Positions 49,453-61,644 of a stretch of DNA of 64,000 nt are shown piece by piece. The notes beneath the pieces were generated by a model. That model saw only the letters and a program-made list of their open reading frames with translations, was not told the DNA's origin and searched no databases. A program made the position numbers and the translations under genes. The number at the start of each line of letters is the position of its first letter. The stretch's first letter is position 1. Source of the stretch: Escherichia coli (GTDB lineage: Bacteria > Pseudomonadota > Gammaproteobacteria > Enterobacterales > Enterobacteriaceae); assembly GCF_011045215.1 (NCBI RefSeq), contig NZ_CP049201.1; one strand, given 5' to 3'.

Positions 49453-50679
49453 ATGGGAATTAACGAAATCATCATGTACATCATGATGTTCTTTATGCTG
49501 ATAGCTGCCGTAGACAGGATCCTGTCGCAGTTCGGCGGTTCTGCTCGTTTCCTCGGTAAGTTCGGTAAAAGTATCGAAGGATCAGGCGGTCAGTTCGAAG
49601 AAGGCTTTATGGCAATGGGCGCACTGGGCCTGGCGATGGTCGGTATGACCGCGCTGGCACCGGTACTGGCTCACGTACTCGGGCCGGTAATTATCCCGGT
49701 TTACGAAATGCTCGGCGCAAACCCGTCAATGTTCGCCGGAACGCTGCTGGCGTGCGATATGGGCGGCTTCTTCCTCGCCAAAGAGCTGGCGGGCGGCGAC
49801 GTAGCAGCGTGGCTATACTCTGGGTTAATTCTCGGGTCGATGATGGGGCCAACGATTGTGTTTTCCATTCCGGTGGCGCTCGGCATTATCGAACCTTCTG
49901 ACCGTCGTTATCTGGCGCTCGGCGTGCTGGCGGGCATTGTGACCATTCCGATTGGTTGTATCGCTGGTGGTCTGGTAGCTATGTACTCCGGTGTGCAGAT
50001 CAACGGCCAGCCGGTGGAATTCACTTTCGCCCTGATCCTGATGAACATGATCCCGGTGATCATTGTTGCGATTCTGGTGGCGCTGGGGCTGAAATTCATC
50101 CCGGAAAAAATGATCAACGGCTTCCAGATCTTCGCCAAATTCCTCGTTGCATTGATCACCCTCGGTCTTGCCGCTGCGGTAGTGAAATTCCTGCTTGGCT
50201 GGGAACTGATCCCCGGTCTGGATCCTATCTTTATGGCCCCTGGCGATAAACCCGGTGAGGTGATGCGCGCCATTGAAGTTATCGGTTCTATCTCCTGCGT
50301 TCTGTTAGGGGCGTATCCGATGGTGCTGCTGCTGACCCGCTGGTTTGAAAAACCGCTGATGAGCGTCGGTAAAGTGCTGAATATGAACAACATCGCGGCA
50401 GCCGGCATGGTGGCAACGCTTGCCAACAACATCCCGATGTTCGGCATGATGAAGCAGATGGATACCCGCGGCAAAGTCATCAACTGCGCCTTCGCCGTTT
50501 CTGCTGCTTTCGCCCTGGGCGACCACTTAGGGTTCGCCGCTGCCAACATGAATGCCATGATCTTCCCGATGATTGTCGGCAAGTTGATCGGCGGCGTAAC
50601 GGCGATTGGCGTGGCGATGATGCTGGTGCCAAAAGACGACGCGACCGCAGCTAAAACCGAAGCGGAGGCACAATCGTGA
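49453..50679 (+). CDS. eutH: Ethanolamine permease EutH
   Basis: 408-aa polytopic membrane ORF. Confidence 0.85.
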   Translation: MGINEIIMYIMMFFMLIAAVDRILSQFGGSARFLGKFGKSIEGSGGQFEEGFMAMGALGLAMVGMTALAPVLAHVLGPVIIPVYEMLGANPSMFAGTLLACDMGGFFLAKELAGGDVAAWLYSGLILGSMMGPTIVFSIPVALGIIEPSDRRYLALGVLAGIVTIPIGCIAGGLVAMYSGVQINGQPVEFTFALILMNMIPVIIVAILVALGLKFIPEKMINGFQIFAKFLVALITLGLAAAVVKFLLGWELIPGLDPIFMAPGDKPGEVMRAIEVIGSISCVLLGAYPMVLLLTRWFEKPLMSVGKVLNMNNIAAAGMVATLANNIPMFGMMKQMDTRGKVINCAFAVSAAFALGDHLGFAAANMNAMIFPMIVGKLIGGVTAIGVAMMLVPKDDATAAKTEAEAQS

Positions 50680-52079
50680 ACACTCGCCAGCTACTGAGCG
50701 TCGGTATCGATATCGGCACTACCACCACCCAGGTGATTTTCTCCCACCTGGAACTGGTTAACCGTGCGGCGGTGTCGCAGGTGCCGCGCTACGAATTCAT
50801 CAAACGCGAAATTAGCTGGCAAAGCCCGGTGTTCTTTACCCCTGTCGATAAACAGGGTGATTTAAAAGAAGCGGAACTGAAATCGCTGATTTTAGAGCAA
50901 TATCAGGCTGCGGGCATTGCACCGGAAAGCGTTGATTCTGGTGCCATCATCATCACCGGTGAAAGCGCGAAAACCCGCAATGCTCGCCCGGCGGTGATGG
51001 CGCTCTCTCAGTCGCTGGGCGATTTTGTCGTTGCCAGCGCCGGGCCGCACCTCGAATCCGTGATCGCCGGTCACGGAGCCGGGGCACAAACCCTTTCTGA
51101 ACAACGGCTGTGTCGGGTACTGAATATCGACATCGGCGGTGGCACCGCGAACTACGCCCTGTTCGATGCCGGAAAAATCAGCGGCACTGCCTGCCTCAAC
51201 GTCGGTGGTCGCCTGCTGGAAACCGACAGCCAGGGGCGCGTGGTTTACGCTCATAAACCGGGGCAGATGATTGTGGATGAGTGCTTCGGCGCAGGCACCG
51301 ACGCCCGTTCGCTGACCGGCGCGCAGCTGGTGCAGGTTACCCGGCGGATGGCAGAGCTGATTGTCGAAGTGATTGACGGAACGCTCTCGCCGCTCGCGCA
51401 GGCATTGATGCAAACCGGTTTGCTGCCCGCAGGTGTTACGCCCGAAATCATTACGCTTTCTGGCGGCGTGGGCGAATGTTATCGCCACCAGCCCGCCGAC
51501 CCGTTCTGTTTTGCCGATATTGGCCCGCTTCTGGCAACGGCGCTGCATGACCATCCGCGCCTGCGTGAGATGAACGTGCAGTTTCCGGCGCAAACCGTGC
51601 GTGCCACGGTGATTGGCGCGGGGGCACATACCCTTTCGCTCTCTGGCAGCACAATCTGGCTTGAGGGCGTACAACTGCCGCTGCGCAATTTGCCGGTGGC
51701 GATCCCGATTGATGAAACGGATCTGGTGAGTGCCTGGCAACAGGCGCTGATTCAACTGGATCTTGATCCCAAAACTGACGCGTACGTGCTGGCGCTTCCC
51801 GCCTCGCTGCCTGTGCGTTACGCCGCGGTACTGACGGTCATCAACGCGTTGGTCGATTTCGTCGCGCGTTTTCCGAATCCGCATCCCCTGCTGGTGGTGG
51901 CCGGGCAGGACTTTGGTAAAGCTCTGGGCATGTTGTTGCGCCCACAGCTACAACAACTCCCGTTGGCAGTCATTGACGAAGTGATTGTCCGCGCGGGGGA
52001 CTATATCGACATTGGTACGCCTCTTTTTGGCGGATCGGTTGTGCCGGTGACGGTGAAATCACTCGCATTTCCTTCCTGA
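50676..52079 (+). CDS. eutA: Ethanolamine ammonia-lyase reactivase EutA
   Basis: 467-aa ORF, ATGA overlap with eutH; ends at the island junction. Confidence 0.85.
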   Translation: MNTRQLLSVGIDIGTTTTQVIFSHLELVNRAAVSQVPRYEFIKREISWQSPVFFTPVDKQGDLKEAELKSLILEQYQAAGIAPESVDSGAIIITGESAKTRNARPAVMALSQSLGDFVVASAGPHLESVIAGHGAGAQTLSEQRLCRVLNIDIGGGTANYALFDAGKISGTACLNVGGRLLETDSQGRVVYAHKPGQMIVDECFGAGTDARSLTGAQLVQVTRRMAELIVEVIDGTLSPLAQALMQTGLLPAGVTPEIITLSGGVGECYRHQPADPFCFADIGPLLATALHDHPRLREMNVQFPAQTVRATVIGAGAHTLSLSGSTIWLEGVQLPLRNLPVAIPIDETDLVSAWQQALIQLDLDPKTDAYVLALPASLPVRYAAVLTVINALVDFVARFPNPHPLLVVAGQDFGKALGMLLRPQLQQLPLAVIDEVIVRAGDYIDIGTPLFGGSVVPVTVKSLAFPS

Positions 52080-56739: not shown

Positions 56740-57123
56740 TCATTTCTGTAAAAAACCCATACCGTGGCCCAGGCGATTTGAAATTTTCCCGGCAAGCATC
56801 CGGCGAATATGTTTTTCGTTGATGATGTCGTGAGTGACCGGATCTTCACCTTTCATACATTCCGGCATCTGGTCAAACAATACGGAAGCGCCTTCATCAA
56901 TAATCTCAGTTAAGACTGCTGGCAGCATATTAATGATGCGTTCTGCTTCGTCGTTCATTGCTTTATCGAACGCTTTTTTATCCATTGCTTCGGCGGATGG
57001 TTTGTAATTGTCGCCAGTCAGGTTAAGGTAAGTGTTGTTTGGGTGATACATGGCATTCACTCCTTTTACTTTGATTGTTGCGATTTCTTTGTTTTTGTTA
57101 ATTGTGGTGCCTTTGACTTTCAT
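56740..57123 (-). CDS. Hypothetical island protein (127 aa)
   Basis: ORF track; ATGA start/stop overlap with the upstream HNH-like gene. Confidence 0.45.
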   Translation of the reverse strand: MKVKGTTINKNKEIATIKVKGVNAMYHPNNTYLNLTGDNYKPSAEAMDKKAFDKAMNDEAERIINMLPAVLTEIIDEGASVLFDQMPECMKGEDPVTHDIINEKHIRRMLAGKISNRLGHGMGFLQK

Positions 57124-57539
57124 GCTGCTTCTTCCTTCAATAATTGTGGCAATTTGCCTGTTAGTTCGATTTCTTCATTAATAGATGCAAGTAACTGTCT
57201 CAGTTTGCGATGTAATAGCTGGTGACGCTCTCTCGGCATTTTTACCAGGTTGCTTAAGCGGTTATTCTGCGGATCGTAGTCCCGGTGATGGATATCATAT
57301 TTTCGCTCATCGTAAACACCGTAGCACCATAACCAGGCAGCCTTTTCTATTGTCATGCAGGTACGTTTTCCGTTGCTTAAACAAATGGTTATACTCAGGT
57401 GACCGCGATGTTTTTCGTTTAAGCTGCCTTTAATTACCTGGCCTGTGCTGCGGTTGTGAAATAAACCAGTTTCAGGGTCGTAGTGATATTTCTGTCGTAA
57501 TATATCAACTGATAACCGTAGTCTTGTAAGATTGTCCAT
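57120..57539 (-). CDS. HNH-family endonuclease-like protein
   Basis: 139 aa; AAWLWCYGVYDERKYDIHHRDYDPQNNRLSNL resembles the phage HNH_3 pattern (from memory). Confidence 0.55.
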   Translation of the reverse strand: MDNLTRLRLSVDILRQKYHYDPETGLFHNRSTGQVIKGSLNEKHRGHLSITICLSNGKRTCMTIEKAAWLWCYGVYDERKYDIHHRDYDPQNNRLSNLVKMPRERHQLLHRKLRQLLASINEEIELTGKLPQLLKEEAA

Positions 57540-57571
57540 GATGTTCTACCTCAATGTGATTGCTGTGTTAA

Positions 57572-57757
57572 TTATCTTTCTTCTTGTGGCCTATTCAGCC
57601 AGGCCTCGATCTCGCTACGCCAGAATAATAAACGACAATTTCGCGGCGTAAATGGTTGGGGTATTGTCTTATCTTTTAATAGCCATCTTCGAATCGTTCT
57701 TGTTGATACCCCCGCTATTAATGCGAAAGCTCGCAGATCTATAACTTCATCTCTCAT
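57572..57757 (-). CDS. AlpA-family transcriptional regulator
   Basis: Internal ATG with SD gaggt; MRDEVIDLRAFALIAGVSTRTIRRWL...LFWRSEIEAWL matches the AlpA HTH signature; the track's N-terminal extension is low-complexity repeat translation. Confidence 0.6.
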   Translation of the reverse strand: MRDEVIDLRAFALIAGVSTRTIRRWLLKDKTIPQPFTPRNCRLLFWRSEIEAWLNRPQEER

Positions 57758-57780
57758 GTTCTTACCTCGATTAAAAAGGA

Positions 57781-57839
57781 CCGCCCCCAGGGAAAGAAGA
57801 AAGAGGAAAGAGGAAAGAGGAAAAACTTCCTGGAGGCGG
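57781..57839. repeat. Homopurine heptamer repeat (GAAAGAR x4) inside an 11-bp inverted repeat
   Basis: ccgcccccagg [agggaaagaagaaagaggaaagaggaaagaggaaaaa] cttcctggaggcgg; 24-82 nt upstream of the AlpA-like start codon. Confidence 0.85.
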
Positions 57840-58537
57840 GTAATTCGGATTCCTTGAATCAATATCCCATGTGATACTTAATATTATAAAGGGCGGCGGG
57901 CTATGTCGCTATTTTTGCCATAGTGTGACACCATTAATTTATTAACAAAAAGTGCTATTTATTAAATCTTTTTTCGGCAGGTGCAAGAAAAATAATTGCG
58001 ACACGGTAGGGTAGCGGGCGATAATAATCATGTAAGGAGTAGCCACCTTACGCCTCCAAATGTGATCGATAAAAATAATAGTCTCAATTCTTTCTCCCGC
58101 TTCTCGGCGGTTTTTTTGCCTGCAATCACACATCAAAAAAACACATCGAATTGATATGCCTTTAAAACGCAATATAACGCATTTTGACGGCCTTAATTTT
58201 TGCCTATCCACTCGGAAGCGTAAGCCTGTTTTGATTCGTCTGGCGTGGAATGGTGCGGCGGTAATATCAGATCTCAGCGTTCTGTGTGGTGGGATGGAAT
58301 AGCCTGGCAGGATCTGCGTGTGATTTCATTCATCCAACCTTGGATGAATGGTCCGATCTGGTCAGTAGTCCGGCACAAATAAAAAGCGCCTGCGGGCGTA
58401 GCAGACGCTTTGTGTACAGGCTTATCAGTACGGGATGTGCACGAATGATTATACCACCCTCAGAAAAACGTTTGCTTTTGCACTTAAACGGATAAGTGGT
58501 ATTTCTTGGTCTTCATTGGTTTTAGCTCACCATAGGC

Positions 58538-58765
58538 TCATTTAGGTGCGCCCCTGTCGATAATTCGGTACATGTTCTCGGTATATCTCCCGTTAATCAC
58601 CGTTCTGGTAACAACAATCACACCGTTTTCCTCCAGAAAGGCAATGGCCCGCTTCACTCCCTGGCGGCTTACACCGGATAGCTGCGCCAGCCTGTCAATG
58701 GAGATGTTGTATTTGTCCGGCTGGCTTGTCAGGATCTGGAATACCGCTCGTGCTGTTTTCGTCAT
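58538..58765 (-). CDS. Winged-helix/HTH DNA-binding protein (75 aa), candidate island regulator
   Basis: ISIDRLAQLSGVSRQGVKRAIAFLEENGVIV HTH-like segment; divergent from the plus-strand cargo module. Confidence 0.5.
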   Translation of the reverse strand: MTKTARAVFQILTSQPDKYNISIDRLAQLSGVSRQGVKRAIAFLEENGVIVVTRTVINGRYTENMYRIIDRGAPK

Positions 58766-59037: not shown

Positions 59038-59385
59038 ATGTCAAAAATAGTTACTTTGTTTGCGACTAAGCGAGAAGGGAAATCCCTTTCTGTGCGCACT
59101 CGTAAGCCAAAAGCTATGACTGGCTTGCGTAAAACAAATCGTCTGACGCATCTTGACGCGTTAGCGTATCGACTAGGATACCAGTTGGTGCGCGGTAAAA
59201 GTGTCATGTTTCGCTACACTGCTACTCTCGATCACGAAGAAAACAAAGTGATGAATGCGGCCTCGCCTATGGCTGTACCACGAGTAAAAAAAATGACGTT
59301 CACACAAGCGTGTGATTTATCAAAAGATTTATTCGATTCACGAGAAGAACGCTTAAAGAGTGTAAGCTTTGATGGTCCAGAATGA
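59038..59385 (+). CDS. Hypothetical basic protein (115 aa), candidate antitoxin or partner of downstream gene
   Basis: ATG at 59038 with SD aggaga 5 nt upstream; stop overlaps the downstream start by 14 nt; AT-rich. Confidence 0.5.
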   Translation: MSKIVTLFATKREGKSLSVRTRKPKAMTGLRKTNRLTHLDALAYRLGYQLVRGKSVMFRYTATLDHEENKVMNAASPMAVPRVKKMTFTQACDLSKDLFDSREERLKSVSFDGPE

Positions 59386-59887
59386 ATTTATTGGTAAGGT
59401 CTACAGTGATAACAAGTTTAAAACAAACGATGAATTAAAGAGCTTTAAGGATTCGTTTATTTATCATTGGAGATATGGACATCATCCTGATTTTGGAAAG
59501 GATACTCTTTTCCATAAACCCCCGTGTGTATATCCTATCCATTTACGTAAAGTCCATGTAAATATTGGTCTTTATACCAATCAGTACGGCTATAGCGGGA
59601 CAGAACAATGCTGGGATGACTGGTCTACTGGTCGTTATGGTCCCGGTGGTTTCGAAAAAGTTACCCCTACATCTGATGCTTATCTTATATACGCTGTATG
59701 TAAAAATAGAAATGCTGGCGTGTTAGACTTCTGGTTTCCTCCCGCACACAAAAACGCTGAGTTCGAATCCTCTGTACAGTTTGTGGCTGAGATGGCTGAT
59801 AAGTTTTATGAGTCTATCAAGGCGGACCCGATGCCGCGCGATCAGAATCCTTGGCATACGGGGTATATAGTTAAAAAACCAGCCTGA
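59372..59887 (+). CDS. YafO-like toxin-domain candidate (171 aa)
   Basis: FIYHWRYGHHPDFGKDTLF...HLRKVHVN...SDAYLIYAV resembles remembered YafO motifs (FISYKRDG..PDTFGRDALY, HIHL, AHLVYC); family assignment unverified. Confidence 0.45.
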   Translation: MVQNEFIGKVYSDNKFKTNDELKSFKDSFIYHWRYGHHPDFGKDTLFHKPPCVYPIHLRKVHVNIGLYTNQYGYSGTEQCWDDWSTGRYGPGGFEKVTPTSDAYLIYAVCKNRNAGVLDFWFPPAHKNAEFESSVQFVAEMADKFYESIKADPMPRDQNPWHTGYIVKKPA

Positions 59888-60438: not shown

Positions 60439-61644
60439 TCACGGTTCAAGTGGATTACCGTCACCAGCCAATATTGAATCAATAGCGTCGGCGTAATCCT
60501 GCATCATTGCTCGCCGTTGCTTCAGGTAGGCCGCCTGGTTATAAACGCCGCGCACACCTTTCGGGACGTGGGCCAATTGGATTTCGATCCAGTCTGGTGA
60601 GTATCTGCCAGACTCATTAAGCGCCGTTGAAAAGGTGGTCCGCCAGCCATGACCAGTGGCAATGGATTTATAGCCGATCCTCTCAAGCGCCTTCAGTATC
60701 GCGCTGGCTGAAAGTGGCTTATCCATGAATCGACCAGGGAAGACGAAAGCACTGTATCCGCTCCTTGTAAACTGGTCCTGTAATAGCTCCACCGCCTGCC
60801 GTGATAGCGGGACCACATGCGGGCGGCGGGCCTTCATGACTTCAGCGGGCAATGTGATTGTTGCGTCCTCCAGGTTTATCCATTCCCAACGGCACAAACG
60901 CAGTTCTGCGGTCCTTAATGCCGTTAATATAAGCAAACGTATTGCCGTCTGAATCTGGACGCTCCCGGCCCTCTCAAGGGCTTTGTAGAAGGCCGGAATT
61001 TCACTAATCGGTATCCACGCGTTGTGACCAGGTCGGCGGGCCTTCAGTGCCGTATCAAGATCTGCAACCGGATTCCTCGTTACCAGTTCGGTGATAACGG
61101 CAAACTTGAAGATCTCACCGATGCGCTGGCGTAGCTTGCGGGCCTGCTCCGGTGCGGTACGTTCTTTCTTCTGGAGTAATGCCAGCACGTCACGGGCGGT
61201 TATATCGACAATCGACCGCTTGCCAAGTACCGGATAGACGTCTTTTTCTAGGGCCGATCTGACCTGTTTTGCATAGGATTCCGACCACCCTCCAACCCTA
61301 GTAGCAAACCAGTCTTCCGCCACCTTCTTAAATCCTGCCGCCATGTTGAGCGCATCAATGGCTTTTTCCTTGCGGGCTTGTTCCACTGGGTTAATTCCAT
61401 TGGCAATAAGGGATCTGCTCTCCGTGGCGCGCCTGCGTGCTTCTTTGAGTGTGATTAGCGGGTAAACACCAATAGCCTGCAAAAACTCTCGTTTATTCAA
61501 CCAATACCTGAATCGCCAGTATTTCGAACCGTTGGGATGCACCAGCAAAAACAGCCCCGGCGTCAGTGAATCGGTGAGTTTATAGGGCTTGTCCTGCGGC
61601 TGTGCGGCGTCTATGGCCTTTGCTGTGAGTGGTGTCTTGCTCAA
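60439..61644 (-). CDS. intZ: P4-type tyrosine integrase
   Basis: 401-aa ORF; N-terminal arm-binding-like domain plus catalytic region (HGWRTT...RGVYN); at the island edge next to eutB as for CPZ-55 IntZ. Confidence 0.85.
   Translation of the reverse strand: MSKTPLTAKAIDAAQPQDKPYKLTDSLTPGLFLLVHPNGSKYWRFRYWLNKREFLQAIGVYPLITLKEARRRATESRSLIANGINPVEQARKEKAIDALNMAAGFKKVAEDWFATRVGGWSESYAKQVRSALEKDVYPVLGKRSIVDITARDVLALLQKKERTAPEQARKLRQRIGEIFKFAVITELVTRNPVADLDTALKARRPGHNAWIPISEIPAFYKALERAGSVQIQTAIRLLILTALRTAELRLCRWEWINLEDATITLPAEVMKARRPHVVPLSRQAVELLQDQFTRSGYSAFVFPGRFMDKPLSASAILKALERIGYKSIATGHGWRTTFSTALNESGRYSPDWIEIQLAHVPKGVRGVYNQAAYLKQRRAMMQDYADAIDSILAGDGNPLEP

Follow-up and report, generated by a model that had tools for sequence, protein, structure and literature searches.

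The window, a 64-kb stretch of an Escherichia coli chromosome, was analysed around a long non-coding gap within a mobile island. Of 5426 complete genomes, 5423 match the flanks of the island, and 1414 do so at an identity of at least 99%. The island itself extends over approximately 52.1-61.7 kb (about 9.6 kb), between eutA (50676-52079) and eutB (61782 onward), the same site that the cryptic prophage CPZ-55 occupies in strain K-12. This copy is a mosaic, and at least 80% of it was covered by none of the 5426 complete genomes. Except for a YafO-family toxin pair on the plus strand, all of the island genes are on the minus strand, in the order integrase, 75-aa winged-helix gene, gap, 61-aa Xis/AlpA-like gene, 139-aa HNH gene, genes of no assigned function, a gene resembling the Sf6-type small terminase, and others. 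The genes that bear on the gap are:

60439-61644, minus strand, IntZ-type integrase gene (open reading frame list and homology)
58538-58765, minus strand, 75-aa winged-helix gene (Pfam HTH_11/HTH_36)
57572-57757, minus strand, 61-aa Xis/AlpA-like winged-helix gene, first gene of the operon (PHROG 66, 'excisionase and transcriptional regulator', E 1.5e-7)
57120-57539, minus strand, 139-aa HNH endonuclease gene, second gene of the operon and predicted target of a small RNA (Pfam HNH_3, E 5e-7; PHROG 99, HNH endonuclease, E 9e-11)

The 75-aa protein is the counterpart of the C-terminal DNA-binding domain of the YffL family, as found by BLASTP against 169-aa HTH proteins of other islands, and its PHROG matches were to the winged helices of replication initiators. 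The 61-aa protein gave no match to Pfam Phage_AlpA (PF05930); it scored 20.3 bits with HTH_17, below the cut-off of 27, and E 0.08 against lambda Xis. It may be regarded as a generic Xis/AlpA-type winged helix, for which antitermination is proposed by analogy only. Judged from its gene content (integrase, YffL-like winged-helix, Xis/AlpA-like, HNH and small terminase-like genes), the island is a member of the CPZ-55 family. With the K-12 element (intZ-yffL...yffS, between eutB and eutA) it shares the insertion site, the IntZ integrase and the YffL-family winged-helix gene.

The first-pass annotation had described the gap as 675 bp starting at 57863. The left border is probably 57758, because the AlpA-like open reading frame most likely starts at the ATG at 57757, which is served by a GAGG Shine-Dalgarno sequence, and the annotated homologues are 62-63 aa long; the gap is then 57758-58537, or 780 bp. 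A 96-aa reading frame with a TTG start was rejected as an artefact, since it passes through a repeat-encoded hairpin and its homologues are only 62-63 aa long. The gap was indeed the largest non-coding stretch of the island (the next intergenic gaps are 551 and 349 bp). It had also been called AT-rich, which is true only mildly and at the margin (GC content 0.43; the island has 0.46 and the flanking chromosome 0.54). The view that it holds no credible open reading frame was borne out: frames annotated in relatives differ in strand and phase and are broken in the window, and the commonest variant stops them all. Between 177 and 211 of the 5426 complete E. coli genomes match parts of the gap, which is not orphan DNA; all of these matches are chromosomal, and nearly all have 'none' as the annotation.

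A compact transcription unit was found on the plus strand of the gap. Its parts are:

58032-58117, plus strand, candidate small RNA (sRNA) of about 86 nt (covariance model R1, folds and terminator scan)
57996-58025, plus strand, promoter of the sRNA: -35 TTGCGA, 18-nt spacer, -10 GATAAT (promoter scan and alignment)
58032-58051, plus strand, 5' hairpin of the sRNA (predicted fold)
58053-58066, plus strand, single-stranded seed of the sRNA, CCUCCAAAUGUGAU (unpaired in every predicted fold)
58097-58117, plus strand, Rho-independent terminator of the sRNA: stem 58097-58110, U7 58111-58117 (terminator scan)

In 14 aligned E. coli relatives the -35 TTG and the -10 GATAAT were invariant and the terminator was kept; the promoter as a whole reads TTGCG(A/C) at -35, a spacer of 17-18 nt and GATAAT. 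The GUAAGG/CCUUAC arms of the 5' hairpin are the gtaagg..ccttac pair that had been picked out earlier as a short palindrome, here located at 58032-58051. The sequence of this hairpin differs with the island type, and AAGGG/CCCUU, GAGGAU/AUCCUC, UGAG/CUCA and AGGUU/AACCU were found elsewhere. The unstructured middle is more conserved than the hairpin and reads CCUCAAAAUGUGAUCUAUAACUACAACGAU in most copies. The terminator of the relatives is a G+C hairpin followed by 7-9 U.

The fold, with a 5' hairpin, an open middle and a terminator, was common to all 26 distinct variants, and covariance model R1 was built on 15 of these. R1 found exactly one copy in each related locus; in the 64-kb window its sole match was 58032-58117 (57 bits, E 5e-9). 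The copy in the window is the most divergent, scoring 57 bits against 82-110 bits for the others, and its terminator stem has just 4-5 bp. On the model-fitted alignment, which leans towards the model, 89.7% of cells were paired, compared with 35-53% when the partners were slid, and no shuffle reached the observed covariation score. Four base pairs change on both sides, e.g., C-G to A-U in the terminator, in an alignment of close relatives with an effective number of 2.0, which makes the covariation thin. The terminator was kept in 39 of 39 copies, and the compensatory C-G to A-U change is present in seven copies (three distinct sequences). RNAalifold, run on the model-fitted alignment, returned the terminator as the only column-consistent helix; it missed the 5' hairpins because they sit in different registers. 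The covariation analysis suggested for this region gave compensated pairs, if few of them, and by RNAalifold recovered the terminator alone. Folding energies were not exceptional (z -0.3), and this held for every segment of the gap on either strand. In most variants, stop codons interrupt the strand antisense to the sRNA. An Rfam search at E<=1 with permissive filters gave no match in the gap, the c4 family included.

The unit combines its own sigma-70 promoter, a Rho-independent terminator with a U tail and a conserved single-stranded seed, the sequence features of enterobacterial trans-acting sRNAs with the Hfq-type architecture. On this anatomy, 58032-58117 is most likely a previously unannotated small RNA gene. 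A non-coding RNA had been one of several roles proposed for the gap, and it is the one best supported by the conserved promoter, 5' hairpin, seed and terminator and by some compensatory changes.

About 185 of 5426 complete E. coli genomes (~3%) carry the sRNA, each once and on the chromosome, and none annotates it as an RNA; a few records place a hypothetical-protein reading frame over it. Strain ATCC 8739 is one of the carriers and has the L002 variant. It was also found in one circular record of 9 kb, the single plasmid match of the gap. The metagenome search yielded 25 genuine copies, which all belong to E. coli types known from the other loci, and seven random AT-rich matches. No copy was found in viral contigs, the exact degenerate pattern of the sRNA was absent from 100,044 species-representative genomes, and a 20-mer from the core of the gap (58231-58289) was absent from the one-per-species genomes. 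CPZ-55 of K-12 differs from the present island in having no sRNA (the best R1 score there was 12.9 bits, E 0.37), and its yffL-yffM gap carries four tandem repeats instead. The sRNA was probably overlooked, and is missing from Rfam and from RefSeq annotation, because the K-12 element, which has been treated as inert, does not carry it. Among the papers searched, none contained the sRNA sequence and none connected CPZ-55 with an sRNA or with a PICI.

Targets of the seed were sought by complementarity. Within the window, plain complementarity gave no run of 10 nt or more outside the antisense strand of the sRNA itself, and full-length duplex folding for trans targets was uninformative. A search in the relatives pointed to one recurrent site, about 430 nt from the sRNA and on the opposite strand:

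57549-57561, minus strand, predicted sRNA binding site AAUCACAUUGAGG, covering the Shine-Dalgarno sequence of the HNH gene (duplex -15.3 kcal/mol)

In the window, AAUCACAUUGAGG and CCUCCAAAUGUGAU would form 8+5 bp with a 2-nt bulge (-15.3 kcal/mol, p ~0.005 against shuffles). The site ranks 15th among 352 candidate translation initiation regions (TIRs) over the whole window, and its duplex is the second weakest but one. The seed was complementary to the HNH TIR in all 12 distinct seed/TIR pairs, from 17 loci, with energies of -11.4 to -22.6 kcal/mol, p<=0.001-0.03 in shuffle tests and up to 14 contiguous base pairs. The latter were found in locus L015, in which the mRNA AUCACAUUUUGAGG and the sRNA CCUCAAAAUGUGAU would pair over 14 contiguous bp including the Shine-Dalgarno GAGG (-22.6 kcal/mol). 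When ranked against other TIRs, the HNH TIR was first or second in six of the seven loci so tested and eighth of 53 in L001.

In L003, the commonest island type, the gene after alpA has no complementary site, and 22 of the 39 sRNA-bearing loci show no such HNH gene in the sequence examined; the HNH gene is therefore not the sole reason for retention of the sRNA, which must have another role or be a relic in islands of the L003 type. Pairing of the seed with the motif CCAUAUUU in the leader loop described below was also considered; it amounts to 8 bp in some types and is lost in the window and in L048, and this candidate was rejected.

The complementarity of the seed to the HNH Shine-Dalgarno region suggests a translational brake like that of RalA on RalR. 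In the rac prophage of E. coli, the RalA sRNA represses the mRNA of the RalR DNase through 16 nt of trans complementarity (PMC4041452). Both arrangements have a prophage-borne sRNA near, and not overlapping, a nuclease gene, and the complementarity is of similar extent (16 nt for RalA, 13-15 nt here, over the Shine-Dalgarno). They differ in that the nuclease here is an HNH protein of 131-139 aa encoded in an operon, whereas RalR has 64 aa, in the lack of sequence similarity, and in that repression here is a prediction. An antitoxin RNA that pairs with the toxin mRNA is the mark of type I toxin-antitoxin systems, and the predicted duplexes over the HNH Shine-Dalgarno have this form. The candidate sRNA itself is new; its kind, a prophage or satellite sRNA near a nuclease target such as RalA/RalR (PMC4041452), is already known, and no new principle is implied.

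Between the sRNA and the Xis/AlpA-like gene, on the minus strand, two further elements were recognized:

57883-57911, minus strand, candidate promoter of the AlpA-like operon: -10 TATAAT 57888-57883, weak -35 57911-57906, transcription start at about 57876 (PWM score 9.1)
57773-57840, minus strand, leader hairpin and U tract, terminator-like (sequence, fold and tandem-repeat search)

The -10 sequence is TATAAT or TAAAAT in every island type, at the same distance, about 115 nt before the AlpA-like ATG. The leader stem has 11 bp of G+C (57829-57839 with 57781-57791), a CU-rich and unusually long loop of about 30-35 nt, and a U tract at 57777-57773; in the window the loop holds a tandem repeat of GGAAAGA (x4.7). 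The Shine-Dalgarno sequence and ATG of the AlpA-like gene come straight after the hairpin and U tract. This layout of hairpin, U tract, Shine-Dalgarno and ATG is kept with at least six unrelated stem sequences, all with G+C-rich stems of 9-11 bp and a pyrimidine-rich loop. Since no promoter fits downstream of the hairpin, transcription of the operon must traverse it. The hairpin is best read as a terminator-like attenuator of the AlpA-like operon. A further role proposed for the gap, that of carrying the regulator's promoter, thus gains support by inference from the conserved -10 at 57888-57883 together with the structurally conserved terminator in front of the AlpA-like gene.

As in AlpA- and Q-type modules, an intrinsic terminator lies between the promoter and the first open reading frame of the operon, although the protein falls outside the Phage_AlpA family. 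In Pseudomonas aeruginosa, AlpA lets RNA polymerase bypass an intrinsic terminator located just upstream of the first open reading frame (PMC7969949). The locus described here resembles that of P. aeruginosa AlpA and the lambda Q-type systems in the succession of promoter, intrinsic terminator and first reading frame of the operon, and in having a small winged-helix regulator of the Xis/AlpA kind; it differs from the AlpA case in that the terminator precedes the regulator's own gene, that the protein fails the Pfam Phage_AlpA model and that read-through is proposed by analogy.

Taken together, these elements suggest that the gap is a control region of the island, in which an sRNA gene stands beside a promoter and leader terminator that gate the Xis/AlpA-like/HNH operon, and from which the sRNA blocks translation of the HNH cistron. 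A probability of about 0.55 is assigned to this reading. In the resting island, transcription towards the AlpA-like/HNH operon would mostly end at the leader terminator. On the transcripts that leak through, the seed of the constitutively made sRNA, CCUC(C)AAAUGUGAU, would anneal to the HNH Shine-Dalgarno region; translation of HNH would be blocked and the mRNA perhaps destabilised as well. Upon induction, by a helper phage and/or by terminator read-through due to the AlpA-like protein, mRNA of the operon would exceed the sRNA and the nuclease/packaging programme would be expressed. If the predicted pairing is true, the island is a compact case of an sRNA that gates the nuclease of a mobile element, coupled to a terminator-controlled Xis/AlpA-like operon.

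In the right-hand part of the gap, the following features were recorded:

58383-58411, minus strand, intrinsic terminator of the 75-aa HTH gene transcript, an 11-bp stem followed by UUAUUUGUG (terminator scan)
58125-58210, no strand assigned, conserved non-coding block directly 3' of the sRNA terminator (70-82% identity in ~37 loci)
58231-58289, no strand assigned, nearly invariant core (alignment A3, ten relatives)
58327-58350, no strand assigned, perfect 11+11 nt inverted repeat (repeat search and alignment A3)

The sRNA unit faces the other way from the two elements that flank it, the HTH terminator (58411-58383) and the alpA-side promoter, a position that is compatible with a convergent or antisense insulator. 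On that explanation, the sRNA promoter fires against the minus-strand genes upstream (HTH, toxin-antitoxin and integrase side), and collision and antisense pairing stop read-through into the AlpA-like operon, the RNA having no target in trans. The layered terminators fit this, and in some islands a minus-strand gene of 125-150 aa has its 3' end no more than about 25 nt from the sRNA terminator, which has no U tract on the minus strand. Nevertheless, an insulator is considered unlikely: the greater conservation of the unstructured middle than of the hairpin argues for a role that depends on sequence, an insulator leaves the complementarity to the ribosome-binding site of HNH unexplained, and no conserved minus-strand promoter reads into the unit.

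The stretch 58125-58365 (about 240 bp) is conserved non-coding DNA; no consistent reading frame, conserved promoter, unusual folding energy or complementarity elsewhere in the island was found in it. A second plus-strand promoter, at 58151-58178, was rejected as its spacing is not conserved. For the core, resemblances to sigma-54, Xer/dif, DnaA-box and IHF sequences were judged by eye only, and none fitted. The phage genomes searched for a shared cos site or target gave no match to the gap at E<=1e-5; at E<=10 the only match was one of 47 nt (79-81%) between 58154-58202 and the ends of T5-like Klebsiella phages (E 0.03-0.3), which was treated as unproven.

Several traits of this stretch would suit decaying mosaic DNA, in which the gap is mostly debris of lost or swapped genes and its elements are functionless leftovers. 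Swaps are cassette-like: a winged-helix gene of 125-150 aa takes the place of 58210-58285 in some islands, the homology of L002 and L012 stops at 58289, and L003 has a duplication. In some islands the block 58125-58210 is overlapped by the 3' end, i.e., the C-terminal codons, of a 150-aa gene (in L008 it is non-coding), and long open frames cross the core in L002 and L005, where they belong to no Pfam or PHROG family. The divergence of the sRNA copy in the window points the same way, and if the sRNA is not expressed the region would be mere mosaic regulatory debris. Against this, island types whose flanks are only 70-80% identical still share the sRNA promoter, terminator and seed as well as the leader hairpin, with compensatory changes, and the core is nearly invariant despite stops in every frame of the commonest type. 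Decay is thus rather improbable as the explanation of the gap. In other strains, a copy that lacks the sRNA adjoins ychJ.

A replication origin for the excised island had also been among the suggested roles, with the conserved block as its site and perhaps with the sRNA as a copy-control antisense RNA or the 75-aa protein as an origin binder. The 9,003-bp circle CP057168.1 is in its favour, as it has the same operon and no recognisable rep gene or replicon type and keeps the sRNA, the block and the core in a non-coding stretch of 1.1 kb; so are the likeness of the 75-aa HTH to the DNA-binding domain of phage replication initiators (PHROGs) and the four iteron-like tandem repeats, of ~23 bp each, beside yffL in the K-12 CPZ-55. 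The window, by contrast, has neither iterons nor an arrangement of DnaA boxes with a marked AT-rich unwinding region; its repeats are chance two-copy ones apart from the tandem repeat of the leader loop, and its only palindrome varies between islands and is missing from the circular relative. No conserved primer-RNA promoter faces the sRNA, which consists of one 5' hairpin and a terminator and not of three stem-loops, and the circular record, although deposited as a plasmid, may be an excised island caught in assembly. An origin is accordingly a distant prospect.

The palindrome catccaaccttggatg noted in the first-pass annotation is real, being part of the perfect repeat 58327-58350, and lies at 58331-58346, 3 nt from where it had been placed. 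The CACATC repeats noted with it (plus strand at 58129 and 58142, minus strand at 58434) are due to chance, given 35 copies in the window for 35.9 expected from shuffles and a second copy that is not conserved in relatives. That the 24-bp palindrome and neighbouring sequences are operators bound by the 75-aa HTH protein as a repressor is very improbable: an inverted repeat of 11+11 nt without mismatch is what dimeric HTH operators typically look like, and both half-sites change together between islands, but the palindrome of L001 differs from that of the window although the HTH gene DNA is 94-97% identical, it is dispensable in some islands (deleted in L048, the circular relative, and absent from L013) and duplicated in L003, and it stands some 450 nt ahead of the alpA-side promoter and some 190 nt past the end of the HTH gene.

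To our knowledge, very few phage satellites have a described regulatory RNA (P4 CI RNA and PLE SviR). The CI RNA of P4 and the c4 RNAs of P1 and P7 are small RNAs that keep the lytic operon of a satellite or prophage silent; they arise by processing of the leader of the operon on the same strand, and act by termination or by blocking ant translation. Unlike these, the sRNA described here has a divergent gene of its own, complete with promoter and terminator, and it matches no Rfam family at E<=1. SviR, an sRNA of the Vibrio cholerae satellite PLE, has targets that were found experimentally both in the satellite and in its phage (bioRxiv 10.1101/2022.04.08.487710). Both are regulatory sRNAs from a phage-satellite-like island; host, island family and sequence are unrelated, and here the only target, a predicted one, is internal to the island.

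PMC11773190, citing PMC6092414, describes AlpA of Gram-negative PICIs as a helper-induced, self-activating master regulator. The island resembles such elements in having an integrase and then a small AlpA-type regulator at the head of a same-strand operon, in its size of ~9.6 kb, in its terminase-small-subunit-like gene and in the absence of structural genes from the copy in the window; it differs in having no primase/replicase gene and in a regulator that is not a bona fide Phage_AlpA protein, and some relatives carry tail genes. A bolder and doubtful extension of the control-region reading is that the sRNA is an immunity or 'stand-by' factor of an undescribed, minimalist family of E. coli phage satellites, CPZ-55, and that with the leader terminator it forms a two-layer RNA switch that silences the nuclease/packaging genes until a helper phage arrives or the Xis/AlpA-like protein allows read-through. 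If such a satellite switch exists, the CCUC...AUGUGAU seed might also target transcripts of the helper phage or the host, and the core could be a further RNA or DNA element, e.g., a packaging or replication signal of rep-less circles such as pRHB34-C15_2. A family of 'uncharacterized cryptic prophages' would, if this were true, become a tractable model of satellite control. The circular 9-kb relative is the only hint of PICI-like, helper-dependent induction, excision and packaging.

The conserved block (58125-58210) and core (58231-58289) of the non-coding gap were found in a second setting in E. coli, as a copy of window positions 58138-58360 in two related loci (L007, 3001-3222; L013, 2501-2692). 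There they lie on the border of a different island remnant, next to ychJ/purU. The candidate small RNA (58032-58117, plus strand) is absent at both ychJ-side copies, and the homology begins exactly at the expected end of its terminator. Positions 58154-58202 also gave weak matches (47 nt, 79-81% identity, E values of 0.03-0.3) to T5-like phages of Klebsiella and Escherichia, in their terminal or repeat regions, a likeness that may be due to chance.

An insertion between 58210 and 58285 (window numbering) gives some islands an additional gene, convergent with the small RNA terminator:

L004 3366-3818, L011 2628-3080 and L008 2948-3325: gene for a winged-helix-like protein of 125-150 aa (MRDIDWS...)

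No Pfam or PHROG family was found for this protein. At another locus (L003, 6230-6366), a unit of about 44 nt, comprising GGATCTGCGTGTGATTTCAT plus a hairpin, is duplicated in tandem, as it is in L043 and L044; the palindromes of the two copies differ (GGTCCAGATTTGGACC versus TCATCCAACCTTGGATGA).

The E. coli record CP057168.1, 'plasmid' pRHB34-C15_2, is circular, with a total length of 9,003 bp. The window is homologous to it over about 53-58.3 kb, and the AlpA-like/HNH operon is present on both. The record also carries a copy of the small RNA (72.9 bits) and the conserved block, and a serine recombinase takes the place of the tyrosine integrase. No rep gene or replicon type was recognisable in the 9,003 bp. 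This record could represent the island family in excised or plasmid-like form.

The loop of the hairpin that precedes the AlpA-like gene differs in other island types; the CCAUAUUU motif is conserved there. The window has the following loop:

57791-57823: GGAAAGA tandem repeat (4.7 copies), the CU-rich loop of the leader hairpin on the minus strand

The -35 regions of the gap's two divergent promoters (57904-57916 and 57991-58003) share a 13-nt inverted similarity (TGTCGCTATTTTT / AATAATTGCGACA), seen in the window only, which might reflect a site for a common regulator or chance.

Two features concern the YffL family, whose members in other islands have 169-255 aa:

58538-58765, minus strand: gene for the 75-aa HTH protein, equivalent to only the C-terminal winged-helix domain of the family

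L049 4440-4560: repeat unit of about 23 bp (GGCAACTTTTGACCCACC..) present four times in tandem, between yffL and yffM in CPZ-55 of E. coli K-12 MG1655

The best PHROGs scores of the 75-aa protein were to the DNA-binding domains of phage replication initiators (O-like, DnaD-like). The CPZ-55 repeats adjoin yffL and resemble iterons, or operators to which the YffL winged-helix protein would bind; K-12 lacks the small RNA.

A probable type II toxin-antitoxin pair separates the HTH gene from the integrase:

within 59041-59887, plus strand: YafO-family toxin gene, 172 aa (PHROG 1651, E value of 9e-43)

within 59041-59887, plus strand: overlapping upstream gene of about 114 aa
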